Shown: positions 9,230-59,997, counted from the first letter of the whole stretch. The stretch: DNA of 62,216 nucleotides, filler included, from Collodictyon triciliatum (GCA_043381765.1; 7 parts of 7 records of this genome joined end to end with filler, not necessarily neighbours in it), one strand, 5' to 3'. Program-made: numbers and translations. The notes: generated by a model from the letters alone, not told the origin.

Positions 9230-9329
9230 NNNNNNNNNNNNNNNNNNNNNNNNNNNNNNNNNNNNNNNNNNNNTTAATTAATTAANNNNNNNNNNNNNNN
9301 NNNNNNNNNNNNNNNNNNNNNNNNNNNNN
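9230..9329. other. Artificial contig-joining linker (N-TTAATTAATTAA-N); also at about 19377-19476, 29510-29609, 39639-39738, 49769-49868 and 59898-59997
   Basis: The same six-frame stop 12-mer sits in 100-nt N spacers recurring about every 10.1 kb. Confidence 0.95.
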
Positions 9330-9499: not shown

Positions 9500-11279
9500 C
9501 GTATTCGAAGCGACCTTGAAGTATGGAAGCCGCCCAAGCTGCGACCGATAGATCACACCGCTTTGAGGACTCTATGGACCTGGTATTTATGGAGCCTTAC
9601 CAGCCTCTATACTCACCACGCCGATCGTTTACTATCATATGCACGCTCAATGTTTTTATTTATCATATACCCTCTTGACAAAAATCTTATCAAAAAGATC
9701 GGTGAACTTTTTCAGGTCTTCGATGATAATATCCGCGAATCACTTACAAGTATTCTGAGCCAAATTGATACAGCGATGCACATGCAACTGGAAGAGGTCG
9801 GGTAGTTCGTTATTTGTCAAAGTACCACATCACATCGATATATGAAATGAAAATATTCCATCTATTGGGGTGCCTAGTCATTCATCTAACATATTTTCAA
9901 AAAAAGTAAAACAACCCTTTGAACTAATACAACAAAGCTCTCACCATATACAGTTTTGTAAAGAATGATGGCATAAAATATATTACCATCTATTGAATGA
10001 AGATGTTTCATACACGTTAATACCTAGTTAAAATCAAAAATACAATATAAGAGGGCATAATGGAAGTAAAGTTTCTTTTATTTTTTGTAACTTATTTTCA
10101 AAAAAAACAAAAACAAAACAAAACAACTGATAAACTCCATTTAAAAATTCAGCTCCTTTCATGCAAGATTGCTCAACAAAAACCTATCAGCATATCAGAA
10201 ATGGAAATCATTCGCAGACGTGATATATACAAACATACGTTTCAATCTTGGAATCAAGCGAAGAGGAAAAATGTACAAATACCGCATATTCAAAATGCCT
10301 TGTTTCTCGTCAAATTTCAACCGATGTTGACGAAAAGCTTCCTCCTGGGAAGTCGTGTTGAGGTATCAATTTCCTACCAGCCTATAAAATACATACAACT
10401 ACCGCTTGATGAAAAGGATATACTGTATCATGTCAGAAATGGGCTGTTTCCTATCGTAAGAGATCCGACGACCATAGTGGAGCCTCTTCTTAAATTGGAT
10501 AGGGTTCCCAATCCCGAGGAAAGTTCATCTGCGTGCTCATCTTTGTGAGGGTTTGCCATTCATCCAATGACAGGCAATGTGTTTATTTCAGTAGAGCATT
10601 CTCATTGCATTTTGGAATTGAATACAAAGCTTGAAGTGATTCGCTGTCATAGAAATTTTGGAGATGAATGTGGTAAGTTGAACCAACCCCGTGGGATTTC
10701 ATTTTCGCCTGACGGGAAAAGATTCGTTGTCGTCGACAATTCTAACAATAGGATCTTATTGTTTGACCAAGACATTAACTTCCTAAAGATATGCAGCTTA
10801 AACGAAGCAAAAAAACTATCGTACCCCCAAAATGTAGCCTTTGACAAGCAGGGTGATTTCTACATCGCCGGAGGAGCCTCAAATGCAGTTTTCAAATTCG
10901 ACTATGATGGGAATCATGTGTGGACGTTTAATGACCGGAATGTGAATCCTCATTTGGATTGGACGTGGGGCATTGCTGTGAGTGATGATAATGAAATATA
11001 CGCCTCGTGCTCTGGAAACATTCTCCATGTCATATCGGCAGAAGGTGTGTTTCTTCGCCATGTTCGCGTTTCTTTTTCTTTAAGCAACTTTGATAACATC
11101 ATTCGAGGCCCGAATGGCTCACTCGTTGTTTCTTGTCATAATGGGGACAAAGTTTACTTTATCAATCCTGATGGCTCTGTCATACACTCCATTATTTTGA
11201 AGAAACCGTCAGGGGCTGGATTTTCTTCAACCAGCAGTTTTTCGTGCTCTCTTACCCAGGAGAGATGTTTGGCTTCTAG
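9500..11279 (+). pseudogene. NHL-repeat (beta-propeller) protein gene with an in-frame TGA and a likely terminal frameshift
   Basis: NHL motifs GKLNQPRGISFSPDG.RFVVVDNSNNRI, LSYPQNVAFDKQGDFYI and WTWGIAVSDDNEIY. ORFs 10060-10548 and 10567-11391 share a frame, split by TGA at 10546-10548. The last blade continues in another frame (FFNQQFFVLSYPGEMFGF*). Start and upstream exons are uncertain. Confidence 0.65.
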
Positions 11280-11903
11280 TCCCCCCTACGCTGTCCGTGT
11301 CTTTCATCATAAAACCTTTTTTAATCACCTAGCCTTCTCAAAAATAAGGAAAGGAAAGGAACTGAAAGGAATCGGTATCGCGATGAGTTGAGATGATACA
11401 AGACTTGCCCATAAAACCCCAAACAAAAAAATGCAGCTTCTTCCCAGTTCTCATCTCACAAACTAAATATTCCAGCTATGGAAAACTAGCTTGGCCGCTA
11501 TTCATCGCTACATTCCGATTATTGCTCGCTCTAAGGCGTCTACAGAACGCTATCCAACCTTCTAGAAGCCTTCCAAAAAAGATGATAGCCTTCACACTTT
11601 CGGCAACCCACTCGCGCGATCGTTTTTTGATCCAGTTGAAAGGTTTCCTCCGCATTACACATATATAATTAAGTGCGGATGCAACAGTGAAGTCCACGAA
11701 GGGTCAGCAGAAAGCCCGCCACAACCTCATTCCACCACAAAGCAGTCACACAAACACTTGCTGAGCAATGAAAGGAACGTGGAGCCCCTTAGAAAAGACA
11801 CACAGAAGCACAACTCTTTGATCATGCAGCCATTCGGCACTAGGCACATCCCTTTCTCTTCCCCCCCCCCCCCCCCTTTAATCTTTTTTTCTTTTCCCCT
11901 TTT

Positions 11904-11943
<40 letters not shown>

Positions 11944-12079
11944 CTTTTCTTTTCTTTTTTCTTATTTTTCTCTTTTCTCTTTTCTTTTTTTCTGCCTCTC
12001 TTTCTGGATCAAACCATGCCACCCCTGGCAGAGTAGCTAACGGTCTCTCGCCCCAGACCCCGGAATCCACCCAGCCAGA

Positions 12080-13141
12080 ATGAGCGCAACGCCAAAGATG
12101 CCATACCGCCTGCTCGGCCCCACCGGGCTGAAAGTCAGCGCGCTGTCCTTCGGGGCGTGGGTGACCTTCAAGAGCCAGGTCGACGTGGAGAACGCATACG
12201 AGCTGATGAAGACGGCGTACGACTCGGGGATCAACTTCTTTGACAACGCAGAGGTCTACGCGGACGGCGACGCGGAGCGCATCATGGGACAGGCCATCAA
12301 GCGCGGCGTGGACGAGAAGGCGTGGGACCGCGAGGATCTTGTGGTGAGCACCAAGGTCTTTTTCGGCCACGACAAAAAGAACGGGCCCAACAGCAAAGGC
12401 CTGTCGCGCAAGCACGTTGTGGAGGGCGTGCAGGCTGCACTGCAGCGCCTGCAGCTGGACTACGTGGACCTTGTCTTCTGCCACCGCCCCGACCCGCTGA
12501 CTCCGATTGCCGAGACCGTCAAGGCCATGCACCATGTCATCGAGCGCGGCTGGGCCTTCTACTGGGGGACCAGCGAGTGGAGCGCCCAGCAGCTGACCGA
12601 GGCCATGCAGGTTGCAGACCGCCTCGGCCTCCACCGCCCCGTCATGGAGCAGCCGCAGTACAATCTCTTCATCCGCCACCGCGTCGAGGTCGAGTATGCG
12701 CCCGTCTACAAGAACTTTGGCCTGGGCCTCACCACATGGTCGCCCCTGGCCTCCGGCGTCCTGACCGGCAAGTATGCAGGCGGCCAGATTCCCGAGGGCT
12801 CGCGCCTGTCTCTGGCCGAGTATGCCTGGCTCAAGGAGAGCAAGACAAGCGGCGCAAACGCCTGGCAGATCGACCGCGCCGAGGCTCTTCGCCCCATTGC
12901 CCAGGAGCTCGGCTGCACCATGGGCCAGCTGGCCATCGCCTGGTGCGCCGCAAACACAAACGTCTCCACCGTCATCCTTGGCGCAACCTCCATTGCCCAG
13001 CTCAAGGAGAACCTCGCCGCCCTCGACATCATCCCCAAGCTCACCCCGGCCCTCATGGCCCGCATCGACGAGGCCGTCCAGACCAAGCCCAAGTTTGACG
13101 AAACCACCATCTACGTAAACTCCATCCGCAAACTCGACTAA
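12080..13141 (+). CDS. Aldo-keto reductase, Kv-beta/KAB1-like (AKR6-type), intronless
   Basis: 353-aa ORF with LKVSALSFGAWVTF, GINFFDNAEVYA, STKVF, GLSRKHVVEG, CHRPD, WAFYWGTSEWSA, EQPQYN and WSPLASGVLTGKY. Confidence 0.93.
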   Translation: MSATPKMPYRLLGPTGLKVSALSFGAWVTFKSQVDVENAYELMKTAYDSGINFFDNAEVYADGDAERIMGQAIKRGVDEKAWDREDLVVSTKVFFGHDKKNGPNSKGLSRKHVVEGVQAALQRLQLDYVDLVFCHRPDPLTPIAETVKAMHHVIERGWAFYWGTSEWSAQQLTEAMQVADRLGLHRPVMEQPQYNLFIRHRVEVEYAPVYKNFGLGLTTWSPLASGVLTGKYAGGQIPEGSRLSLAEYAWLKESKTSGANAWQIDRAEALRPIAQELGCTMGQLAIAWCAANTNVSTVILGATSIAQLKENLAALDIIPKLTPALMARIDEAVQTKPKFDETTIYVNSIRKLD

Positions 13142-19376: not shown

Positions 19377-19488
19377 NNNNNNNNNNNNNNNNNNNNNNNN
19401 NNNNNNNNNNNNNNNNNNNNTTAATTAATTAANNNNNNNNNNNNNNNNNNNNNNNNNNNNNNNNNNNNNNNNNNNNATATGTTCTTAC

Positions 19489-28430: not shown

Positions 28431-29372
28431 GTTCTCGCTACCAGTTGCAGTGAGTTATGAGCTCAATACTGGTGAGTTGAACGCACGCGATTGGGCGGTG
28501 TTTTCGTGCTGCCTCGCCAGTATTTTCATTTCCCCTGCCACTGTGCCTTTACAACAATACTGATGATACGCAACACATGCCGGATTCCTGCCTCCTGTTT
28601 TCATTTGTCTCTTTGTACTTCACCTCTTTGCTTTGACGTGGATCATTTGCACTTTCTGATTCCAGTGCCACAGTAATCAAACATCCTTAATGCAATCCTC
28701 TATTTCACCTCTTTATATAAGGCAAAAGCTAATCCGAGATTCGGCTCATCTCGCGTGGCTCTGGGCACAAACTCGGAATTCAATAATCTTAGACGGGGAA
28801 TCCAAGATAGTTTAATCATGATAAATTAAGGTGATAATCAGGCGATTGAGTTTGGTAGCAAATGTGGAGTATATAATTATTAAGTCATATCTGCGTCATA
28901 ATACACTCGATAAGTATACAATGATATAATTATTCCATTATATATGTACTAGGAGATATATATGAGATAGGGTATCTGAGTTATGGGTGAGGCTTCATGG
29001 CACTTTCGCGCTGTGGCACGCCAGGCAAGAATCATCCTCCTTGCTTCAAACACACACAAACGCATCGAGATATATTTACATTGTAAATACAGAGTGAGTC
29101 TCTCATGTCCTATGGCGACCACATAAGCAGAGATGATGGGAAGATGAGTGGTTGGGTCATCCGAAGCCTTTTCGCATCATTGGGACAGAACCCTCCAACG
29201 ATCAGATTTGGTTTAACTGACCTTCTTTGTTCTTTTCTTTTTATTTTTTCTTCCCTTAATCCGAAGAAAGTCCAACACAGGCACCAATGGACGAAGAGCA
29301 TGATCTGCTGAGGTTTGAACCTAGTCCCTTTCTAATGGTCATCTCTGTCTAGGCCCGAGGCCCACCCAAAGA

Positions 29373-29509
29373 AGGATATAAAAAAAAGGATATAAAAAAA
29401 GGATATAAAAAAAGGATATAAAAAAAAGGATATAAAAAAAAGGATATAAAAAAAAGGATATAAAAAAAAGGATATAAAAAAAAGGATATAAAAAAAAGGA
29501 TATAAAAAA
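29373..29509. repeat. About 14-bp tandem repeat (GGATATAAAAAAAA)n at a contig end
   Basis: Seen directly. Confidence 0.9.
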
Positions 29510-29819
29510 NNNNNNNNNNNNNNNNNNNNNNNNNNNNNNNNNNNNNNNNNNNNTTAATTAATTAANNNNNNNNNNNNNNNNNNNNNNNNNNNNNNNNNNN
29601 NNNNNNNNNCTAATAATAATACTAATAATAATACTAATAATAATACTAATAATAATACTAATAATAATACTAATAATAATACTAATAATAATACTAATAA
29701 TAATACTAATAATAATAATACTAATAATAATACTAATAATAATAATACTAATAATAATAATACTAATAATAATACTAATAATAATACTACTAATAATAAT
29801 AATAAATTTCACCATTCAG

Positions 29820-32800
29820 GAGATATACCACTATTTGAATCGTCAATAAATCTAGAATACATCGTCATTTATGAAACACGTATTACAGGTAGCTCATCTT
29901 ATTCTTTAAAAGACCATATACGGCATTAAAATATTGTGTCCTATTTCTTTCTTTGCTTGTTAATTGATTATACTGTATGATTTACTGTTTTTAACTTTTT
30001 TCTTTCTTTCACTATCATAGGTCAAATGCCCAGCTGCGACAGACACCCAAAGTTGAAGCAGATATTTCTAGTATCAAACGAATTGACAGGTAAATTCCAC
30101 AAAACTATCATAATTATTCACTGATTATTGAATAATGATGTACATGATTTTCTTTCAAGGGAAACACTGGTACTATTTTCTTTTTACTTTATAAATATAA
30201 TTTTCTTTCATCCAATTCAAAGACATGTGAAAGATTTTTTTTCCATTATTCGATTCAAAGTGTAGCGAGGTTAAAAGACATGTGAAAGATAATTGATGGT
30301 AATGAGGTCACCACTATTTTTTCAGGCTCATTAGAGAATCTCTCAACTTGCCCTCTCCTGACCGAAGTACATGTTAGCTCAAACAAAATCCAAGGTATGA
30401 AAGTAGAAAAATAACAAATAAAACTTTCTACTCATACTTTTTTCATACTAGACCACGAATCAATATTTTTCTATTTAAAAACACCTTATGTGACAGGCGT
30501 GTTATCGAATCTGGACCATTTCAAATCAATGATAATACTAAATGCCTTTTACAATAAAATTGGAGGTATCTAGCTCGTAATATCTGTATGATTATTTCTA
30601 TTTATTATTACTTGATCTATCATACTTTTTGATTTAACCCGGTACAATAATTCTATTTTTTTTTTTACTTTTACTTTTATCAAAGGTAATTTGCCACCCA
30701 CGCTTAATTCATCTACAATACAAGAACTTGATGTTCATGACAATCTGTTAACAGGCAAGCTATTTTTTCCTGTATTGTAAATTGAAAAGTCATCCTATGA
30801 AACTCTGCTATTTGAATCTAAGTCTTTATTAAATCAAAAATTTCTATGTAATCAAAGGAGAAATTCCGAAGCATCTTAGTCCAAGACTTATTCACTTTAG
30901 TTGTGGGCTGAATAGTATATCAGGTTGTTCTATATAAGTGATAATATTGTACAAAAACCCAAATAATTGATTAAGGAAATCATCGATGATAGGGGGTATG
31001 TCAATGCTGCGCGATGCTATTAATTTGGAAAAATTGTATCTTGGAGGAAATATATTGAGTGGTAAGTATCTTTTTCTTTTGTAAGGAAAACAAATGGCAA
31101 GTACTTCTCTTTTGTGACCAGATTGAATTTTGAAGCAAAATGGGAGGAGCCAACCTGTTCTAAAAAATCAAAACATTTTACAAATACTTACTTTTCGTAT
31201 ATGTAAATCACATATTAATGACACTACTTAACTGGTTCTGATTAAGGATTTTTGGATGATTTCAGTCACAATCCACGACTTACTATTCTTGATGTTGGCG
31301 GAAATATGATAAAAGGCAATAAAATGACATACAATTTTCTAATTATATGACTCAAAATCTTTGTTAATATGGGCGCATTTTTTGGTTTTTTCATGCAAAA
31401 TTGACATTCTTTATTTTTATTTTAAAAAAAATATTCTGAAAAAAAAAAAAGGCTTGCAATAGTTCTATATGATTTTGAATTATTTTTTTCTAGGAACCCT
31501 ACCTGAATTTAAAGGTTCTCTACTACTGGTGGAAGTAATTCTAAATAGTAATTTACTATCTGGTATATGTTAAATAGAAAACATATTGACTAAATGTTAT
31601 TAATTTAATAGCGACTATCGTATATTTTTCTTTTTTCATCCAGTGAAATTCTTGACAAAATAAACTTAATCACTTGTAATCATTTATAATCAGATGCTAT
31701 ACATTTCCCATCTGATTTTTTTTAACTATGACTTATGGTAGGGTCTATTCCTGACTTCTCTCATTTAAAAAATCTTGAGATACTATTCCTTTACGACAAT
31801 AAACTGCAAGGTAAGAAATATTCGTTGGTTTTAAAAATTTGAAGAAAATAATCAGTCTTATTTTCTTCAAAAGTTATGAGGTCAAACGATTTCGAAGTAA
31901 TTAATTGAATTTATTCACATGGTTTGTTATCCTCAGGTGTTCTTCCGACCTTTAGCGAAAATGAATTATTGCTAGAACTTAGTCTCTTGAACAATGAATT
32001 GAAAGGTTTACTTACCCTATCGATAAAGTTGGTTATCAGATACTTTATTTTCACTTATATGTACTTTTTTTTTGTCTGGTCGTATGTATATTCAATATTT
32101 CTTTGTATTATTTCATAGGAACTATTCATGATTTTGTATTACCCAACCTGAATGGCTTGTACCTCATAAATAACCGACTGGAGGGTTTTTCTTTTAAAAT
32201 AAATTATCCTACGAATACGATAGTACGACCCTGTAATAAATATTTGAATTCTAAATGATTATTTTCAGGAACTATCCCGAACTTTTCTTCGTTGCCTAAT
32301 TTACAGTACATTTATCTATCATCAAACGATCTAACAGGTAAGCATAAATCATAACATACCCTTTACGATAGAAAATCTTACTTACATAACTACCTATTTA
32401 CGTATAAAAGGAACTTTGCCCGAATTTCAAGGACTCGGAGAGCTTTTGGTCATGTACATATCAGACACCTTTGTTCATGGTAACTGCTTAAAATGAACGT
32501 TTGCATGTATGAATTGCTTTGTTTCTAAAAGTTCTTGAAGGTCGTGGAACTTCGTCCTAAAATAAATATAAAAGGCAGTATCCCAGGTTTCTCTTCGCTT
32601 AGTAAAATTAGAGAAATTGTTCTATATAACAACTTCCTTACAGGTAATTTCAATTGCAGAATAATTTTTGTTTTAGAAACCAATTATGTTTTTTTTTTCA
32701 AATAAAATAATGACCGATGGATATCAGAAGCAAAATCCATTATTATCACTATGACTATGACTATGACTATGACTATGACTATGACTATGACTATGACTAT

Positions 32801-35613
32801 GACTATGACTATGACTATGACTATGACTATGACTATGACTATGACTATGACTGTAATTGTTATCTCCATCATATGAAAATTCCCCTTTTATATTGACCAA
32901 ACCCATTCCACATTGCCTCTTGTTTTTCTTTTGATAAGGATCTATATCCTTTCCAAAACGTCTTCCCAGTCTCAGCATTATAAACATCCAAAATAACGAA
33001 TTCACAGGTTTTTTTTTATATAACAAAATAACAGAAAATATTTGATATTTACCCACTGATTAAATATATTTATCATTTATATTCCTTTTGTTTGTAGGAT
33101 TTGTTCCTGACTTTTCAAATGTCCGTTTTGTCGAAAAAATAGATTTATCAAACAATTGTCTCACAGGCATGTTTCTAGCTTATTATTTCTCCAAAATTTT
33201 GTGAATAATATTTTATCCCGTTGGTCCAACATCGGTATGGATGGAATCGATGCACTCTGAAGTAAAATTTATAGGAACTATTCCAAACATTGCTGGTCTT
33301 GATCGAATCACAAGCATTAACTTATCTGGGAATAATCTCGCTGGTGCGCACAACCAAATCAATTACCATATTTGATTTCTTCTCAAATATCCATGTATTA
33401 ATGTATAATTTTTCATGAAGAAACCACGCTATCTGATTTTTTTTTGATTCTTATTTATTAATAACAGGAACAATACCAAACTTTTCCTTCATAAGATCAA
33501 TCGAATTACTTCATTTGTCCAGAAATATGCTATCGGGTCTGTACTGGTATTTTCATAATGAAAAAACATATTCTGTATAATTATCGAGAGCAATGCATAA
33601 ACATTTTTTTTTTAAAAAAAAAAGACCAATTTTTTTATGTGGGATAGTATTACCTGGTCGGCTTATATTAATTCATGAATGTTTCATTTTCATCATCAAG
33701 GTGGCGTTCCAAACTTCGATATGGTCCCAAATCTGAAGTATTTTTCTGCGCATTCCAATCTGTTAGAAGGAACTTTGCCCTCCTTTGAACTATGTCCTGT
33801 CTTATTATCAATTGAGCTGTTTTCAAACAAACTATCAGGCACTCTACCCAATATCGTTCTACATAATCTGGAGCATTTAGATATAAGTAACAATCGATTC
33901 CAGGGGCTCATATCTCCTCTAATGGAGGTTCCAAATATCAAAGTCCTAGACCTTTCTATTAACTCATTCGATGGTCACATACCAAATACACTTGGGCTGT
34001 TGAAAAGGCTCGAAAAAATATACCTGTCAAACAATAGCTTTGTCGGCACTATGCCTGAATTATTCTGGGAACTTCCTAAGCTCTGGTTAATTGACCTGAG
34101 TTCCAATCAATTTTCTGGGGATGTGACATGGTTCATAAGCCCAAAGTACAAGCTGGATACACCGTATTTCTATCAATATCTCTACCTAGACAACAATAAT
34201 CTCAGCGGGGAAATGTCATGGTGGATATATCAGTTTGTGACTCAGGTGCAAGTGCTGTCATTGAAGAACAATAAAATCGCTAAACTGAACGACGCTCCAA
34301 ATATCTTAGATTGGAAACAATTGGACGTATCTGGGAATCCCATAGAGGGTTCATTGCCTGAGAGCTTCTCAAACTTTGTAAAGATGACATTACTTGATGT
34401 TTGTGGGACAAATATGAAGTATACAAATCGCTCTATAATACCTTCGTTCACTACTTATGGAGAGCCGTACCAACTTGAAGATACTCGCATGTTGTACCTG
34501 TGCCCAAGTATTCGGTCAATGGAGCACTCAAAAGAGTTTTCAATCCTCATGAGTCCGTCGTACTACGATCACATTTTCTGTGAATGCCTGCCCAATTATT
34601 TTGGAATACGCAACGTGTGTTTAAAATGCCCTGACGGATGCCATTGCGAAGACGGAAAAAGTTTGCAAGGATGCTATGCATCTCCTAGTGTGATTGATAT
34701 AAAATCACTTGTGCTATGTCCTTTTGCTGACTCTTGCAAGCAAACCCTTTCCGCTGACAGGACAGGAATGCTGATGGGCGATGAAGACGAGAGCCAATGC
34801 CAGGAAGGGTATACAGGTCGCGTTTGCTCAAAATGCGAGGACGGATACGGATATCGTGGACGAACGTGTATTGATTGCAATGACACGTCTATCTTTGTGA
34901 CCATGATTTTTTCACCCATAGCGTTGATGGGGTTTGTAGGGGCTTTAATCCATTTCAACTCTCCAAACACAGGTTCGCTTCCGTTGATCATTTTTTTTAT
35001 CTGTAGATTTAAGAAGAACTGGTTTATCACATTCATTTTTATTTGCTTTTCCTCTCTCTCGTCCCTATTTTAGCGAAAAGTTTTAACAATCACTGATACG
35101 CTCACGTAGGGAAGTTGAATATCGTGGTATTTCATCTACAGACGCTCTCTATTATATACACATCGTTGACCAATTCCAGGCAATTGAGTGAAATGATAGA
35201 TTTTACATTTTCTCTGGGGTCTATATCCATTCCGACAATCTCGTGTGTGTTGGGAACTACAGACGCACTATCCCCGTTAGTATTCAGCTACGGGAGGCTG
35301 ATTCTGTTGCTTGCTATAGCCATTTACATGCACCATGTAATTCCCATGAGCGGAAGAAACAAAGTACCTTTTTTTTTTTAAATAATATTTTTTTGGTAAA
35401 TGAACTACTATTTAATTTTTTTTATATTTTTTTTAATGATTTTGTAGTTTACATTCTTATTTTTTTTTAAATATTTGACCATCTATGATGAGGATGATTG
35501 CGATGAGCTTATTACATAGCATAATCTTCCGCAGTACACAGAAATGAAGGGGGATAACCATGTGCAATCGAACCAACAAAATCAAAATTCTCACAGTACC
35601 CTTTTTTTTTCTA

Positions 35614-35647
<34 letters not shown>

Positions 35648-36761
35648 GTTATTCACGTATCCCTTACACTCCTCCACATCATGTATTACCAAATAGTCCG
35701 AGACGTGTTTGGCGTCTTTGGTTGTACGCTATACGACGAAGGCGATGGCTTTTGGTATCTGAATGCATCGCCGTGGATCCGATGTTCACCCACCTCTGGG
35801 GAGTATATGAACATGCTAAGCATTTCCATCCCCGTGTTTCTCTTGTTCGTAGTTGCTTTGCCGTGGTTGGTGTGGAAAGTGATGAGAGACATCAGAATAT
35901 CGCAAGCATGTGACTCCAGGGATGAGCGTTACGGATTCCTCTACTTGCCGTTCAAGAAGGTTTGGATTTTAGCTTCTCTGGCCTTTTCAAACAAAAGCAG
36001 AACATACGTTCCAATCCTACAAGTTTATGAAGCAGAAAAAAAGGAGGAGGAATAATCAAGAAAAATCAGACTCATCACAGAGAAAAAAAGAAAAAAAAAG
36101 AAAAAAAAGAAAAAAAAAGAAAAAAAAAGAAAAAAAAAGAAAAAAAAGAAAAAAAAGAAAAAAAAGGAAAAAAGGAGAAAAAAAGGAGTAAGAGACCCAT
36201 GCGATTAACATGTGATCTAACATATAGGAATGTCAATTCTGGGAGCTTGTTATTTTGGGGAGAAGGATTGCCTTTTCTTTGGTGACCACGGTTGTTCCAT
36301 ACACCTCTCAAGGAGTACTATATCTTCTCATTATTCTCGTGATTCAGGTAACCCTGGCGATGCAGGATGCAAACCTCGACACAATCCAAACACAACCGTC
36401 ACCAATATCCACCCACCTACCCACTCGCACAGATACCCACACAGGCAGATTAAGATATTCTTGCACCCAGGTCTCCATATGGCTGCAGCAGAAGTACGCT
36501 CCATACAAGTCTGCCATAGAGAACCACATGGAAGCATCGAGCCTGTTTGTTATCTTCATCTCGTTCTTTTCAGCGCTGCTGGACTCGGACCAGGTCGGGG
36601 GCGGATGGGCAGGTCCTGTCATCGTGGCGCTCAATTCCCTGCTGTTTCTTGCCTTTGGCCTTGTTGTCCTGGCCGCCAAAGTCGGACTCTCCGGGAGGGT
36701 CTACATCCACCGGCTATCAAACTATGTGCTCTGGGTTCCTCCGATTGATGAGGATGCGTGA
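29820..36761 (+). CDS. LRR receptor-like protein: extracellular plant-specific-type LRR solenoid, Cys-rich region and multi-TM (about 7TM) C-terminus; 5' truncated
   Basis: Nineteen small exons (29820-33536) each encode G-x-I/L-P...L-xx-L-x-L-xx-N-x-L-x. Large exon 33701-34972 has more LRRs plus [17 protein letters not shown] and [19 protein letters not shown] exons carry [23 protein letters not shown]. Stop is TGA at 36759-36761. Confidence 0.88.
32746..32852. repeat. (ACTATG)n hexanucleotide microsatellite in an LRR gene intron
   Basis: Seen directly. Confidence 0.95.
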
Positions 36762-37708: not shown

Positions 37709-39005
37709 AAAGGAAAGAAATCGAGCAGTGAAGAGAAATGAAAATTAGGGTCATTAGTAGATAGAGACGAATAGGCTTATTATAAGTTTTTTTTTTTGAC
37801 AAAAGAGAATCTGCCTCGAAAAAAATCTAGCAGAAAAATGGTGATTAAGTACGCATTGTTTCCGGCAGCAGCTGGTGGTGGAGGTGGGACGGAGCCGGGC
37901 TTTGGCATATCCGTGCCATCAGAGTGGCTGTCTGAAAGGACAAATGAAGTGATGGTATTGAGGTCTCTAGCTTGGCGGAAGTCGTATACCTTGTTGTTCT
38001 TGAGCAACTTGACGGTGGGGTACCCGCGGACACCAAATGTTTGGCAGGTTTCTATGAGGTCAGAGAAAAAAAGAGAAAACCGGAATTGTAAATTGAGAAA
38101 TTATGAATATGTGAGGCTAATAACGAAATTGACAAGACTCTCCACTATCCTGCACAAAATTGAAAGGAAGAATAAAAAAAAAAAAACGAAACTGACAAGA
38201 CTGCAAAATACTCGTTCATGAGAGCCTGATTCCAGGTTATTTCTTGATAATAACAACAATATCGAGAATTTTGAATTGAACAATGGAATATATCAATAAT
38301 ATCGAAGCAACTTTGATGATACAGAATGATAATCGGTGAGAGGCGCAAATCAATACATACGCTGATTCTTGGTGCAGTCGACTTTCACAATGTATGCCTT
38401 TCCTACAAGGTTAACGCCAACCTAACATATGACAAATGAAGACTAGGTTATGTTCAAGAATGTATAGACATGTTATTAGAACAGAACAAGATAAAAAAAC
38501 TCTCAAGAAACAAAACAAATAAACAAATATATGCTTGCATACTTCATCATAGATGGGAGCGAGTTTCTTGCAGTGGCCACACCACGGGGCAAAGAACTTA
38601 ACGAGGGTGGGCTTTCCAGTTGCTTGGAATTCGTTGATCTGAAAAGACAAAGAAACCGTATGAGGACAAAAGTATAGTGCGGCCATATAAAGCCCTCGAT
38701 CTAGAAGGTGCTTAGATTCCCTCCGAACAACAGGCCTATGATGGGTCGAGATAAACCCGAACACGAAGACAGAGCAAACAAACAACTGTACTTCAGTTCT
38801 TGGCTTCAAGATCATTGAGCTGTGATCCAAAATGTCTTTGTTATCATTACAAATAAATAAATAAAAAAAAAAGGATGTTAATATAGAGAAAGAGGACGGA
38901 GTTCACCTTATCAAAGAAGTTCGAGTCTTCCAGGTCGATCACACTGGCATTGGCGCACGCGGCAGCCAAAAGGACGAGGCTGATCACAGCAAGGCGGAGA
39001 GACAT
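37196..39005 (-). CDS. Single-thioredoxin-domain ER membrane protein (PDI/TMX-like)
   Basis: Signal peptide [55 protein letters not shown]-terminal TM helix and a lysine-rich tail ending AEKKKD*. Confidence 0.88.
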
Positions 39006-39938
39006 CTTCTATAAATTCTGCATAGAAACAAGACGTTATATTCGGTATGGTTGATTCCCACAGGCTCTTACGTCCAGTCTTGAAAAATACTTGCTGGATT
39101 CCTCTGCCTGGCTGTGCACTCGCCTCGCGAACATGCTTGGGAAGAAATCTTTCGATGCCCGATGCTTAGAGCTGATTCATGAGGTGAATGTTCTTTGGGC
39201 TTCCGAAACATTCGAAGAAAGAATCCATTTGCGTATAAAGGATTCGTTATTGAATTTTCCATAAATGAATAATAGTCTGAAATTATACAAGTTATTTCTA
39301 AATTAGTGCCAACTATGAAAACAATCCGCGCAAAGAGGGCAGTGGGAAAGTAGAGTGTGCGTGCGAATGAAATAGAAACTCAAATTAATGGTGCAGAAGT
39401 GGCATTGCATTGACACGCTTGGCTGTAGACAGTGATAAAAAAAGTATATATATAAAAAAGAAAAGCCGCATTCAACTCAGGAAATAGTATCAAGAACAAC
39501 GTTTGTCACGCAACTCAGGTGGACTCAAAGAGTCAGAAGAATTGAATCGACCAGAAAACTCTTATGTTCTGTGACTAAAAACAAAACAAAAATCACAAAA
39601 CAAATAAAACAAAAAAAAAAAACAAAAAAACAAAAAAANNNNNNNNNNNNNNNNNNNNNNNNNNNNNNNNNNNNNNNNNNNNTTAATTAATTAANNNNNN
39701 NNNNNNNNNNNNNNNNNNNNNNNNNNNNNNNNNNNNNNTACTATTACTATTACTATTACTATTACTATTACTATTACTATTACTATTACTATTACTATTA
39801 CTATTACTATTACTATTACTATTACTATTACTATTACTATTAGTCGCATATGAAAATATTACGTTTAAATGTGTGTTATATTGCGAGAAAATACGCGTAA
39901 TATGGATTAATGAGCAATTTTAATACAAAACATTTTAC

Positions 39939-49432: not shown

Positions 49433-49941
49433 GTTTGCATTCACAATCTTAAAGCTCACCATTCGCAAAAACTTTATTAAATATGAAATTTGATAGCAAG
49501 AAACGAAAAAGGAATTAGTTAAGTGTCAAATAAATAAATAAACAAATAAACAAACAAATAAACAAACAAATAAACAAACAAATAAACAAACAAATAAACA
49601 AATAAATAAACAAACAAATAAACAAATAAATAAACAAATAAACAAACAAATAAACAAATAAATAAATAAATAAACAAATAAACAAATAAACAAATAAATA
49701 AACAAATAAACAAATAAACAAATAAACAAATAAACAAATAAACAAATAAACAAATAAACAAATAAACANNNNNNNNNNNNNNNNNNNNNNNNNNNNNNNN
49801 NNNNNNNNNNNNTTAATTAATTAANNNNNNNNNNNNNNNNNNNNNNNNNNNNNNNNNNNNNNNNNNNNTTGATGAGTTGTGAACGATTCCAACGTCCATG
49901 TTTTTTTTTTTTTTTAAAAAAAATAATGTATTGGTGTGTAG

Positions 49942-51587: not shown

Positions 51588-52481
51588 CTAGCCCAGATGG
51601 ACATGGACATTCTCGACATGGGCCCAGGGCACAACAATGAAGCCGAGAGACCGCATGTACGACCGGGCCGGTTTGCTGCCTTCGCCGCGGTGGGGCGATT
51701 GCACAATAGTCTCTTCCTGCGCGTCTGACAGAAGCAGATTGCGCTGGCGGTCAAAGCAAGCGAGTGGGCCGCTCAGAATCCGCCCGTCCCGCAGCTGCAC
51801 ACGCACCACCTTGTTGAGATACTCGCGCACACGCGCAATGCTTTCGGGCTCTGCCTGCCCGGCGCGGTCCGGAGTCACCCAAACGCTGGCGTCGATGCGA
51901 GCAGGCTTCTCCAATGCCTCGGCCTGCTCGGTCTCAGCAGCCTGTGCGCTTTGATCCAAGGCAAACGGGTTGGGCGCGCGTTGGGTGGGCGGCACAAGTA
52001 GGCTTGGGTGGATAGGAAAGGGGAAAATCTGGCGGAAATCCATGGGCTTTTGCCGGTGGCCTTCGTGGCCGTGGTCGTGATTGCATGGGCCGTCGTGTGG
52101 GTGATGATGTTGATGACCGTGTTGATGATGGCTGCTGCGTTGAGGCCCATGTTGATGGTGGCCGTGGTCGTGATTGCAGGGGCCGTCGTGTGGGTGATGA
52201 GGTTGATGGCCATGTTGATGATGGGTGCTGCGTTGAGGCCCGTGTTGATGACCGTGATCGTGACCGTGATCATGATTGCATGGGCCATCGTGTGGGTGAT
52301 GATGTTGATGACCGTGCTGATGACCGTGTTGATGACCGTGATCGTGGCCGTGATCATGATTGCATGGGCCATCGTGTGGGTGATGGTGGCTGTGATCGTG
52401 GCCTTGCTTGGAGGAGCGGCTCGAAGGGCGTTGCGACATTCTGGTTTTCCTGCAGAAAGTTCTGGGCTTAAGAGTTGCCAT
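51588..52481 (-). CDS. Sm/LSm-domain protein (NAA38/Mak31-like) with an N-terminal His-rich repeat, intronless
   Basis: C-terminal YLNKVVRVQLRDGRILSGPLACFDRQRNLLLSDAQE...RSLGFIVVPWAHVENVHV* is an Sm fold most like the NatC small subunit or SmB. The start is ATG 52481 or 52439. Confidence 0.8.
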   Translation of the reverse strand: MATLKPRTFCRKTRMSQRPSSRSSKQGHDHSHHHPHDGPCNHDHGHDHGHQHGHQHGHQHHHPHDGPCNHDHGHDHGHQHGPQRSTHHQHGHQPHHPHDGPCNHDHGHHQHGPQRSSHHQHGHQHHHPHDGPCNHDHGHEGHRQKPMDFRQIFPFPIHPSLLVPPTQRAPNPFALDQSAQAAETEQAEALEKPARIDASVWVTPDRAGQAEPESIARVREYLNKVVRVQLRDGRILSGPLACFDRQRNLLLSDAQEETIVQSPHRGEGSKPARSYMRSLGFIVVPWAHVENVHVHLG

Positions 52482-53098
52482 TCGTATCAATGAGTGATAA
52501 AAAAGAAGAAAGAAGAAGCAACTAGTAAAGGGAGGAAAAGAATCGGTGACTGTGATTGCTCCGGTTGAACCTGTTGTACGCGAGAAGTGTCTGTGACTTT
52601 TCTTTCTTTCTTTTTTTTCTTTCTTTGTGTGTGTGCGTGGCTCTTTCTTTTGATCTGATCGAGTGGTGCTCAAACCTTATCTCGAAAATCGCAAAGTCTG
52701 AATGTGGCGTATTACCAAAAATGCTTGCAGTGATTTCTTTTCTGTCGTAATTTGCGCTTCCAGATTCCAGAGACATTTGTTCTGGGTTTGCATCGACATG
52801 ACAGTGTCTCAAAAAGGCAGCACAAACATTTGTTTTTGTTAAAACTAAGGTCGAGGAGGCGCGCTACGTCTTTGTTCTGGGTTAGCCGCAGTATTTATAG
52901 ATGGCCTGTTCGATTGCGAGGAATCTTCAGGTATGTTGAATTCTTTAATGTGGCGGCCAAGAATCAAGACATACATAACATTTAATAGACAAACGCATAT
53001 GAACCACCTTTGCGTTCGCATTTGGTTCTGAATAAATTTTAATGTTCTTAAATAAATATTAGAAGAAAACCTAAAGGACAGAGAACCCGACCAAGCGA

Positions 53099-57392: not shown

Positions 57393-59644
57393 TTATTCAT
57401 CCTCGCCGTCGCCTTCTTCATCGTCCTCGGGCTCAACAGATTCATGGTCTGCTGGTGGGGGTTTGTTGGCCTCTTCAAATTCTTGCTCTTGCTCGACTGT
57501 CGGGTCCACGGTTTCTGTTGGCGTTTCGCTCTCTCCCAATACAATAGGTGGCGGTGGAGGTGTGTACGCACCGTGGATGTACTTGAGTCCATTGCCAAAA
57601 TAATATGTGGCAAACTTTTTTCCAAGACCTGTGCCACATTGCGAAAAAACAACAACAAAAGACAAACAATAATAAATCATTACCGATGAAGTGAACAGAT
57701 AATATTCCGTGCACATTCAAGGCTAATAACTGCGCACCGTAAGTGTATGAGCCTGGCCAGTACGACGATGCCAAAATGATGGGGATAAACTTGGTGGGAA
57801 TGAAGCCAGAGCCAGGTCTTCGAAGCAACCAGGCAGGAACCTTTCCATCGACCACTGTCGCAAAATGAATAACATTAACAGCTTAATAAATACTAGTAAG
57901 AAACAACTGCGACACAATTAAAAAAATAGATTTTTTTTCATGATTTAAAAGAAAAAAGAGAAAAAAGAGAAAAAAGAGAAAAAAGAGAAAAAAGAGAAAA
58001 AAGAGAAAAAAGAGAAAAAAGAGAAAAAAGAGAAAAAAGAGAAAAAAGAGAAAAAAAAGAGCAAAGGACAGCGAACAACGTACACGCATCTTCGTTTAAG
58101 GGGGCCAACAGCGCTGGGCCAGTCTCCTTTGTGTCCTCTTCTTCCTCCTCTTCTTCCTCGGCATCTTCTTCTTTGTTGGGCTTTGGTTCTTTAGGGGGTT
58201 TCCAGTACTCAGTTCTTCCTTGTGGCAAAATATAGCGCCTATGATGGGCCCAATTCTCTAAATTTGTCATTTCATTCAACTCTATTTCTTCAAATTCAGG
58301 ATTAACTTCCAGGTCGGCCGCAGGAGCTATTATGATGTACATATAAGATAAATAGGATTGAAAATATCAGGAGGTTTTCGATGAACAAATTGGTCATTCA
58401 TATGATGGCCAAGTAAGAACTCTACAAACTGGTTTCGTCCGACTCTTCCGGGGCCACGTAGAATCCTTTGGGACTTATGTAAGTAGCGCTCGAAATGCGT
58501 GCGATTTGGGCTCGTAAGTAATTGAGTTCTGTTCCAGGGAAAGGCGGGTAACTGTGGATTTCAGCATTCAAGTTTCCGGTAAGCATCTTTCGAATCTGTC
58601 TTGCAACCGATATCTGAGCAGGGGTTACATCAGGAAGTTGAACCCAGGACTCACCAACTAATTGTTTGTGTATAAATATGACATTTAATGAAAAATATTT
58701 AGGTAATTATCATCATCACTTTGAATTGGAGAAGGAAAAAAGAGAGGCAATTATCATTGTTTACTGCATTTGACAAACGATGTGGTGCGATAGATACAGA
58801 TTAACAAGGAGAACCTTTTGTGGTGACGTAGTATGTGTACAGATTTGGGCCTGTCTGATTCTCCACAGGAACTTCGTAAGGCTTCCTTATTTCTGGGCGC
58901 TTCACCTCTACTGGGGGTTTTGGTTTTCCCTCGTCATCTTCGTCTTCATTTCCTTCATCGGCGGCCTTTTCTGCGTCTGCGTCATCCTCTGCAGATGCGG
59001 GAACGACCACCGGGTCTCTCTTAAACTCGGCCTCGATAACGTAGTAGTAGTTGTGGATGGCGTTGATTCTTCCAAAAAAGCGGATTGCAGCCGGAGAGAA
59101 TTCATCAATAAGGCGTTGAATTCCCAGGTGCTAGGTTGTTCCATCAAAGGTAGAGAGTGAAAATGAGAGCACAATATTAATTGTAAACGATACTCATTCA
59201 TTCTAATGTGTGTGAGGTTTTGTAGTTGCTCGGTGCATATTCTGGCTTCGATAGTGAAAAATTCGTACCATATGAAATATTTCGTCTTCATTCAGGCCTA
59301 CACCAAAGAATGAAAAATACTCTGCCTCCTCAAACAAATTTGGGATTTCGGCTACTGGAGTTGTTATATCTTTGGCCTTCCTTGTTTTTTTCGGTGCCTG
59401 AATATCGTTAAAAGACAAGTTTAGAAGAAAAAAAGAGGTATGCTTCGCAAGTTGTAAATAACTATTCATTGTCAACATGAAAAAGCATTGTCTTTTAAGC
59501 GAATAAGCTTCCATAATTACAAAATGAGAGACCAAATGATATACAGTACGATAGATCATTTAGTGAATAAACAAAGAAACTCACCTCATAAAGCGAAAGC
59601 TTTTGAGCTAGAGCGTGAATCTGAGGTTGATTCTCCTCAATAAC
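57393..59644 (-). CDS. RSPH4/6: Flagellar radial spoke head protein RSP4/6 family, 5' truncated
   Basis: IRFFGRI...[84 protein letters not shown] and an acidic tail. Confidence 0.92.
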
Positions 59645-59997
59645 CTATATCAACGACAGAGAAAGTCATTTTGAGTATCGATGAGCTTCTATGTACACAC
59701 ATATTTCACTCGAGGCCATTCGTAGTTTACAATTACAAAGCGATAATAACAATAACAATAACAATAACAATAACAATAACAATAACAATAACAATAATAA
59801 TAACAATAACAATAATAATAACAATAATAATAACAATAATAATAACAATAATAATAACAATAATAATAACAATAATAATAACAATAATAATAACAATNNN
59901 NNNNNNNNNNNNNNNNNNNNNNNNNNNNNNNNNNNNNNNNNTTAATTAATTAANNNNNNNNNNNNNNNNNNNNNNNNNNNNNNNNNNNNNNNNNNNN

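Follow-up and report, generated by a model that had tools for sequence, protein, structure and literature searches.

In a 62,216-nt stretch of Collodictyon triciliatum DNA (GCA_043381765.1; the window, meaning the whole sequence analysed), we identified a 5'-truncated gene in which 19 consecutive exons each encode exactly one leucine-rich repeat (LRR). The gene probably specifies a large surface membrane protein of a family known to date only from Diphyllatea, whose one-repeat cassettes were duplicated anciently and now serve mainly as constitutive structure. New here are LRR-per-exon cassettes on a lineage-specific protein of LRRs, Cys-rich region and multi-pass domain in a deep-branching protist. 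One-repeat-per-exon LRR arrays, known from brown algae, plants and vertebrates, are a substrate for exon duplication and shuffling, and the locus lets one ask whether such an array is a diversification device or a fossil of repeat growth. The idea behind the original prediction made for this DNA, a diversifiable receptor, is partly supported: our data do not demonstrate a working diversification system, but one isoform pair of the flagellate Diphylleia rotans hints at swapping.

Nineteen consecutive exons each encode one leucine-rich repeat

We mapped the cassettes by reading positions 29000-34500, by a mechanical scan for AG...GT-bounded phase-1 exons and by compiling an explicit exon table; exons 5, 8 and 17, missed by the strict GT scan, were placed by eye and homology. 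All three routes agreed with the predicted run of one-LRR exons of 66-69 nt. The 19 exons (29820-33536, plus strand) comprise 17 of 69 nt and two of 66 nt (exons 6 and 12), each corresponding to one LRR of 23 or 22 residues. Together with five downstream exons they form a gene model of 24 exons (29820-36761, plus strand) and 1174 amino acids, with a frame that is open throughout:

29610-29819, +, contig start: (CTAATAATAATA)n microsatellite, then the 3' end of the intron preceding the first visible cassette
29820-29888, +, LRR cassette exon 1: 69 nt, phase 1-1, 23 residues (exon table)
30021-30089, +, LRR cassette exon 2: 69 nt (exon table)
30326-30394, +, LRR cassette exon 3: 69 nt (exon table)
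30497-30565, +, LRR cassette exon 4: 69 nt (exon table)
30686-30754, +, LRR cassette exon 5: 69 nt, GC donor at 30755
30858-30923, +, LRR cassette exon 6: 66 nt, 22-residue unit
30993-31061, +, LRR cassette exon 7: 69 nt (exon table)
31247-31315, +, LRR cassette exon 8: 69 nt, GC donor at 31316, nearby in-frame GT alternative absent
31494-31562, +, LRR cassette exon 9: 69 nt (exon table)
31742-31810, +, LRR cassette exon 10: 69 nt (exon table)
31937-32005, +, LRR cassette exon 11: 69 nt (exon table)
32119-32184, +, LRR cassette exon 12: 66 nt, 22-residue unit
32269-32337, +, LRR cassette exon 13: 69 nt (exon table)
32411-32479, +, LRR cassette exon 14: 69 nt; a degenerate repeat in which T stands in place of Asn
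32575-32643, +, LRR cassette exon 15: 69 nt (exon table)
32939-33007, +, LRR cassette exon 16: 69 nt, preceding intron of 295 nt with a (CTATGA)n microsatellite
33098-33166, +, LRR cassette exon 17: 69 nt, GC donor at 33167
33275-33343, +, LRR cassette exon 18: 69 nt (exon table)
33468-33536, +, LRR cassette exon 19: 69 nt (exon table)
33701-34972, +, exon 20: 1272 nt, phase 1-1, with ten LRR units, the Cys-rich region and the first membrane helix
35110-35336, +, exon 21, membrane domain: tblastn with D. rotans proteins, 70% identity to P0001
35648-35959, +, exon 22, membrane domain, including an extracellular loop that contains Cys: tblastn and spliced model
36228-36347, +, exon 23, membrane domain: tblastn and spliced model
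36471-36761, +, exon 24, last membrane helices and stop codon: tblastn and spliced model

Each cassette opens with GN and closes on one G, and splicing therefore restores a GGN glycine codon at every junction; as predicted, the introns flanking all 19 cassettes split this same codon in phase 1 (G/GN). With lengths of 66 or 69 nt and phase 1-1 boundaries the cassettes are symmetric, and any of them could therefore be skipped, duplicated or swapped in frame, which bears out a further claim of the original prediction. Acceptors are AG in 20 of 20 cases (cassettes 1-19 and exon 20), and the cassette donors comprise 16 GT and three GC. The GC donors of exons 5 and 17 preserve the full 23-residue unit present in homologues. 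Overall, GC-AG splice sites occur in three of the 23 introns of the gene (13%); in most eukaryotes such introns make up about 1%. The 19 introns following cassettes are short (69-295 nt) and AT-rich, with a GC content of 26% as compared to 36% in exons.

The cassette units follow the form G-x-[IL]-P-x-F-x-x-L-x-x-L-x-x-L-x-L-x-x-N-x-L-x. In right-justified rows, the framework columns G1 and N20 are each kept in 17 of 19 units, L12 in 13 and P4 in 12, and T replaces the canonical Asn in cassettes 1 and 14. A conserved framework with variable exposed positions had been predicted, and the framework columns are indeed conserved and the x columns variable (entropy 2.6-3.3 bits). Convex and concave x positions vary alike, however, and the variability therefore represents the generic LRR pattern and no special signal.

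Chance does not account for the array. We derived a position matrix from the 17 units that are 23 residues long; it scored those same units, on which it was trained, at 30.9-53.3, while the best other 23-mer reached -0.5 on the LRR contig outside LRR exons and 5.4 in the other 52 kb. A loose LRR regular expression matched the plus strand of the window 59 times, with 26 matches falling into the 29-34 kb bins, and revealed no second LRR gene across the window. Downstream of the cassettes, exon 20 holds ten further LRR units (22-30 residues) in the same phase and without introns. Of 29 visible LRRs, the first 19 are thus intron-split and the last ten lie within exon 20.

Because the contig begins at 29610 within a microsatellite, the cassette count is a minimum of 19. 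Alignments to two D. rotans homologues, P0001 and P0125, begin at their residues 304 and 256, so about 250-300 residues are missing from the window gene; judging by these homologues, a signal peptide, an N-cap and a number of additional LRRs would be encoded there. Searching the window by tblastn with the homologues P0001, P0002 and P0003 gave no match upstream of 29820, and the 10-kb piece on that side belongs to another contig.

The gene belongs to a family known so far from Diphyllatea

Relatives were sought with exon 20 queries in a word-indexed search among longer proteins and in a full HMMER scan of 1.84 billion representatives. These searches returned thousands of generic LRR matches, plant receptor kinases among them at only 25-33% identity and partial coverage, which we therefore regard as generic LRR similarity. 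A small protein set matched the entire query, including the Cys-rich part. Among 24 representatives that were looked up, 22 belonged to this family: 21 D. rotans EukProt transcripts and P0151, a protein that is short and derived from a metagenome. The remaining two, P0294 and P0333, came from a separate search and are of the Kv-beta type. The only full-length relatives found were transcripts of D. rotans, a predatory flagellate, in which the family forms at least 16 paralogue clusters at 50% identity. No match in the protein collections searched exceeded 48% identity to the window gene, and the gene itself is therefore absent from those collections. A word-indexed search with P0126, a membrane-only fragment, gave four matches, all of this family and two of them identified as D. 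rotans transcripts; it missed known members, so this number does not gauge the range of the family.

The spliced model aligned end to end with P0001 (1504 amino acids; 44.2% identity over 1170 columns) and P0125 (1445 amino acids; 44.9% over 1173 columns). Each alignment contained one gap of at least five residues and covered the LRRs, the Cys-rich region and the membrane domain. In a maximum-likelihood tree of the C-terminal 560-600 residues, the window gene was sister to P0125 (support 92/88), and the two fell in a clade with P0001 (97/94) nested among D. rotans paralogues, implying that the family expansion predates the split of both organisms. Intron positions, too, appear to be shared: several D. 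rotans isoforms part ways directly behind '...VIQ' or '...DK' and read on with V..., which is what retention of introns starting GT... would produce. Both points match junctions of the window gene, namely 23/24 and 21/22. On this comparison, the introns at junctions 21/22 and 23/24 appear common to both organisms.

So far, the family is known only in the Diphyllatea lineage (CRuMs). Single-cell genome assemblies have been reported for C. triciliatum and D. rotans (bioRxiv 10.64898/2026.06.11.730069), and in the literature on Diphylleia, Collodictyon and CRuMs, none of the matches listed used the term 'leucine-rich repeat'. For this little-studied lineage of predators, the family is a candidate system for sensing at the cell surface.

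LRRs precede a Cys-rich stalk and a multi-pass membrane domain

In the window protein, the LRRs are followed by a Cys-rich stalk and a membrane part in which a hydropathy scan revealed about eight hydrophobic segments. Pfam assigned LRR families to the window exons and a weak DUF7630 match to exon 20; no kinase and no ROC/COR domain was detected by Pfam, either in the window exons or in 17 family members. The predicted 'LRR receptor' is therefore an LRR-ectodomain gene as proposed, but it lacks a kinase and ROC-COR, and the protein is multi-pass rather than single-pass. Among the 17 family members, 16 matched LRR families (the seventeenth being the fragment P0126), 11 carried DUF7630 in the Cys-rich region and eight an LRRNT_2 N-cap (best E 3.4e-07), a part that in the window gene would lie off the contig with the N-terminus. 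Additional N-terminal domains precede the LRRs in four members, namely NIDO in P0275 and P0284 and FG-GAP_2 in P0165 and P0136. Given these members, the family ectodomain is modular beyond its LRR units.

An AlphaFold model of the homologue P0002, computed with a family alignment, reached a predicted local distance difference test (pLDDT) score of 80.9. Its best folds in the Protein Data Bank (PDB) were the ectodomains of the plant LRR receptor kinases MIK2, GSO1, FLS2, RGFR1, PEPR1, ERL1, HAESA and BRI1, with E reaching 2e-28 and target TM-scores of up to 0.79; ERL2 was matched as well. The plant-type superhelix fold was thus recognised for the P0002 model, which stands in for the window protein as a homologue.

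Conservation is highest in the membrane domain, with 55-70% identity by tblastn and 55% identity to P0125 over 555 columns. Modelled alone from P0126, it formed a confident helical bundle (pLDDT 82). The nearest named clusters in the ESM Atlas carried the PF06011 transient receptor potential (TRP) family on 25% and 12% of their members (scores 0.97 and 0.96), and PF06011 appeared below threshold in three of the 17 family members (P0134, E 0.0035; P0278, 0.19; P0276, 0.26), all three matches covering one profile region, approximately 240-408 of 426. The domain may thus be distantly related to the Flc/Pkd2-type TRP domain, which we regard as a lead and not as membership. A PDB sequence search with P0126 returned a sole, non-significant match (E 0.8) to a 36-residue chain. 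The best PDB fold matches of the membrane-domain model, bitter-taste G protein-coupled receptors (GPCRs), were rejected as relatives (best E 0.55, TM-score about 0.2).

The cassettes are old and the membrane-proximal repeats are collinear

If cassettes were still being exchanged, some should resemble one another. Pairs of cassette exons shared on average 40% nucleotide identity (57% at most) and 25% amino acid identity, and neighbouring cassettes were no closer than distant ones (42% vs 40% at the nucleotide level). Intron-vs-intron blastn gave only two short low-complexity matches, and the introns are unrelated. Searched with the position matrix, neither the introns nor the remainder of the contig yielded relic LRR exons or reverse-oriented ones (best score -0.5). 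The window gene shows no trace of shuffling, whether recent or still under way.

To compare units with those of homologue transcripts, repeats were anchored on the LxxLxLxxNxL motif. The mean unit score on the collinear diagonal was 41.1 for P0001, as compared to 16-23 at shifts of one to four units, and 34.7 for P0125, as compared to 18-22 when shifted; no alternative diagonal emerged with either protein. The collinear unit was the best P0001 match in 12 of 28 units. Among the nine exon 20 units tested, the collinear partner was best in seven (P0001) and six (P0125), and among the 19 cassette units in five and one, respectively. When only variable positions were scored, collinear cells reached the 97th percentile for three and one of the seven units 13-19, and for five of the nine units 20-28 with either homologue. 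By these scores, units 13-28 are collinear with P0001.

The original prediction had expected excess variation at exposed sites, and units 13-19 behaved in the opposite manner: concave-face x positions were identical in 14 of 35 (P0001) and 16 of 35 (P0125) cases, other x positions in 11 and eight of 56. This conservation points to a putative binding surface being kept in that part of the solenoid. In units 1-12, the concave face (7/60 and 6/60) and other x positions (14/96 and 11/96) both appear near background.

A few strong off-diagonal matches were also recorded, among them one between window unit 21 and P0125 unit 13 (score 75; 99th percentile 53) and one between the 22-residue window unit 6 and the 22-residue P0001 unit 3. 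They may reflect old unit duplications or transfers, or chance among some 900 comparisons.

A model for the origin of the array

On the favoured reading, members of the family run from a signal peptide and a plant-type LRR N-cap through about 30-35 LRRs, likewise plant-type, and a Cys-rich stalk to approximately eight membrane helices, with no kinase. An ancestral 69-nt exon would have been duplicated in tandem together with its intron, thereby building the cassette array; such an origin would account for the identical position and phase of the introns within the Gly codon. The copies have since diverged to about 40% nucleotide identity, and with copies now so different, the duplications must date from before the paralogues and the two species diverged. 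The intronless block in exon 20 may have lost its introns or may predate the duplications. Its first four units are cassette-like and start with Gly, which would favour intron loss.

Repeat order is stable in the membrane-proximal two thirds, with the concave face of units 13-19 under constraint. The pattern in the 12 distal cassettes is one of fast evolution or turnover, and unit number changes slowly between paralogues. The LRR solenoid presumably binds an extracellular ligand or surface and would be coupled to the multi-pass domain, itself perhaps related to Flc/Pkd2-type TRP domains. That the ligand is prey or a pathogen, as the original prediction supposed, is speculation.

Distal repeats and one unit swap would fit a possible diversifying receptor

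Several observations, given here and, for the membrane domain, in the following section, weigh against the favoured explanation or parts of it. The 5' part of the gene, with any signal peptide, lies off its contig (29610-39638). In units 1-12, the collinear partner was the best match in only two of 12 (P0001) and none of 12 (P0125) cases, and at variable positions one and none of the 12 collinear cells, respectively, reached the 97th percentile. These distal units have either diverged past recognition or been replaced, and turnover or shuffling is possible there. Gaps of 21-23 amino acids, about one unit, separated the window gene from distant paralogues in nine of the 15 proteins compared.

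Transcripts offered a further view, with the limit that they stem from homologues and not from the window gene. Among 31 D. rotans isoform pairs sharing a 90% cluster (14 + 17), none had lost a whole unit, as plain cassette skipping would produce. One pair swaps exactly one Gly-bounded LRR unit: P0165 and P0287 carry GTLSNYFTPLIQNLTLSTNRLA where P0288 carries GTAPNLKMMQMLETLNIGRNMLT, units of 22 and 23 residues. The three are assigned to one Trinity gene, and their flanks are identical at 708 of 708 and 1024 of 1026 residues. A purely constitutive structure accounts for this swap less well than alternative use of cassettes does, and mutually exclusive cassette exons would produce such a pair. 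Other possible sources are the allelic replacement of a cassette, a recent paralogue and a chimera made by Trinity. In another pair, P0003 and P0128, 12 residues from the Gly of a unit onward are deleted and Val is left, as would be expected if a phase-1 intron had a second acceptor 36 nt further downstream.

These data bear on the explanation that comes closest to the favoured one, namely that the gene encodes an actively diversifying recognition receptor, in which alternative or mutually exclusive splicing, or shuffling and conversion among paralogues, yields a repertoire of surfaces binding prey or microbes. We consider this possible, though rather unlikely. The in-frame modularity of all 19 cassettes, the D. 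rotans paralogue clusters, the one-unit gaps, the unit swap within near-identical sequence, the presumed alternative acceptor and the hypervariability of units 1-12 between homologues would all suit such a receptor, as would the three GC donors, since GC donors are often tied to alternative splicing in other organisms. There is a precedent in the receptors of brown algae (PMC11378527). Arguing the other way, the isoform pairs contain a single swap and no skip, and the swapped isoform differs at two nearby residues besides, leaving room for an allele, a recent paralogue or an assembly chimera. Recently duplicated cassettes, related introns and relic exons were not found in the window gene, and the concave face of units 13-19 is conserved rather than hypervariable. 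Some one-unit gaps fall within the part that is intronless here (exon 20), so exon structure is not needed to explain them. What stands of the predicted diversifiability is therefore the large family, the one-unit gaps, the single isoform swap and the distal units without counterparts; the age of the cassettes, the unrelated introns, the missing relics and the collinearity of units 13-28 speak against the remainder.

A fixed arm, a TRP-anchored solenoid and a decaying gene are less likely

A second alternative holds that the solenoid is a fixed extracellular arm on an adhesion or channel-like protein, such as one that senses contact or stretch, that it plays no part in generating a repertoire, and that the exon layout is a neutral fossil of array growth. 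The conservation of the membrane domain and of the membrane-proximal LRRs would agree with this, as would the leads to PF06011; Pkd2 of Schizosaccharomyces pombe has been described as a stretch-activated, calcium-permeable putative channel (PMC9727806). The TRP link, however, is below threshold. At E ≤ 10, Pfam reported no relevant family, PF06011 included, for the window membrane exons and P0126. The three matches in other family members score 16.6, 10.9 and 10.5 bits against a curated cut-off of 28.5, and none of the 440 matches listed in a PDB fold search with the membrane-domain model had E ≤ 0.001. Moreover, the large paralogue expansion and the hypervariable distal LRRs would fit recognition better than a fixed arm, which we accordingly judge unlikely.

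A bolder combination, for which we see little probability, would give diphyllatean predators a large receptor family with a plant-type LRR solenoid gating, or anchored by, an Flc/Pkd2-like TRP domain, with the phase-1 cassettes used combinatorially, by mutually exclusive or swapped exons like those of P0165 and P0288, to vary the distal binding surface. If true, it would amount to a DSCAM-like or brown-alga-like diversification for recognising prey or microbes in a eukaryotic lineage that is among the deepest.

That the array is a decaying pseudogene or a mis-joined contig is highly improbable. The contig does break off within the gene, at a microsatellite, and cassettes 1 and 14 carry T where Asn is canonical. 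Yet the frame stays open for 1174 codons in 24 exons, splice sites are consistent, expressed transcripts of D. rotans are collinear with the gene, and units of P0001 and P0125 also carry T at the Asn position.

Comparison with known one-repeat-per-exon systems

The closest parallel to the cassette array is found in the type I LRR exons of brown-algal ROCO genes (Ectocarpus, Saccharina), which likewise encode one plant-type LRR per exon in a single phase and start at the Gly of GxxPxxLxxxxxLxxLxLxxNxLx (PMC3341825, PMC11378527). The predicted resemblance to Ectocarpus ROCO genes thus extends to the register, as type I exons there begin GxxPxx... (PMC3341825). Exon gain, exon loss and alternative splicing have been proposed as sources of receptor diversity in these algae (PMC3341825, PMC11378527). 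The algal exons measure 72 nt and are in phase 2 (PMC11378527), those of the window gene 69 or 66 nt and in phase 1. The two systems also differ in protein type, ROCO proteins being cytosolic LRR-ROC-COR GTPases and the window protein combining extracellular LRRs with a Cys-rich stalk and a multi-pass domain. Ectocarpus ROCO introns have been described as related and as containing non-coding LRR relics, with recent shuffling (PMC3341825), neither of which we observed at the window gene. Unlike in ROCO arrays, only the first 19 of the 29 visible repeats are exon-split.

Plant LRR receptor kinases and receptor-like proteins (ERECTA/ERL, SERK, FLS2, MIK2) provide the ectodomain folds that best match P0002, and LRRNT_2-type caps occur in eight of the 17 members of the window family. 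ERECTA is encoded with one LRR per 72-nt exon. Plant repeats, however, measure 24 residues and those of the window gene 23, and the plant proteins have a single transmembrane pass followed by a kinase or a short tail, as opposed to about eight helices and no kinase. SERK genes are reported to tend toward one domain per exon (PMC3061892).

In vertebrates, the receptors for LH, FSH and TSH (luteinizing, follicle-stimulating and thyroid-stimulating hormone) resemble the window gene in placing in-phase LRR exons before a multi-pass domain, and growth of their LRR array through duplicated exons has been proposed (cited in PMC11378527). They have phase 2 introns, a rhodopsin-type seven-transmembrane domain and far fewer repeats, whereas the membrane domain modelled from P0126 has no significant GPCR fold match. 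PF06011 TRP proteins (fungal Flc1-3, S. pombe Pkd2) share the layout of a multi-pass domain after a large extracellular N-terminal part. This likeness consists of language-model neighbours and the three sub-threshold matches, with nothing in the window exons or P0126; the ectodomain of the window family is LRR plus DUF7630. The Gly-register layout in a CRuMs protist widens the known distribution of such arrays, with phase, length and protein architecture differing.

Contig structure and other genes of the window

The window contains six identical 100-nt spacers of the form N44-TTAATTAATTAA-N44 (9230-9329, 19377-19476, 29510-29609, 39639-39738, 49769-49868 and 59898-59997), between which lie pieces of 10047, 10033, 10029, 10030 and 10029 nt, with an incomplete piece at either end of the window. 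Microsatellites form the ends of most pieces. The pieces look like size-sorted contigs joined by a six-frame stop linker, and genes on either side of a spacer are therefore not genomic neighbours. Within the LRR gene, intronic low-complexity tracts comprise the (CTATGA)n microsatellite before exon 16 (approximately 32750-32853) and, in the intron that separates exon 22 from exon 23, a (GA8-9)n purine run (approximately 36080-36185).

A thioredoxin-fold gene with a WCGHC motif (37780-38902, minus strand; Pfam Thioredoxin, E 1.2e-10) is the only other gene seen on the LRR contig and is convergent with the 3' end of the LRR gene. Across the whole window, Rfam gave no match at the gathering threshold. 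On a separate contig from the LRR gene, an intronless open reading frame (ORF) of 366 codons (12041-13141, plus strand) encodes a Kv-beta-type aldo-keto reductase (Pfam Aldo_ket_red, E 5e-70) sharing 81% identity with a D. rotans transcript and 91% with environmental proteins; it lies within an island of 58% GC, the rest of the window having about 35%. Provided that all contigs belong to one assembly, these identities mark the source as related to D. rotans yet distinct from the EukProt strain. Further coding regions include an NHL-repeat ORF (10549-11391, plus strand; Pfam E 8e-10) and a long ORF (51588-52676, minus strand) with an LSM domain (Pfam E 2.8e-08) after a histidine-rich repeat (HHPHDGPCNHDHGH... 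units), an unusual combination. A radial-spokehead-like exon (57938-58366, minus strand; Pfam E 1e-21) fits a flagellate.

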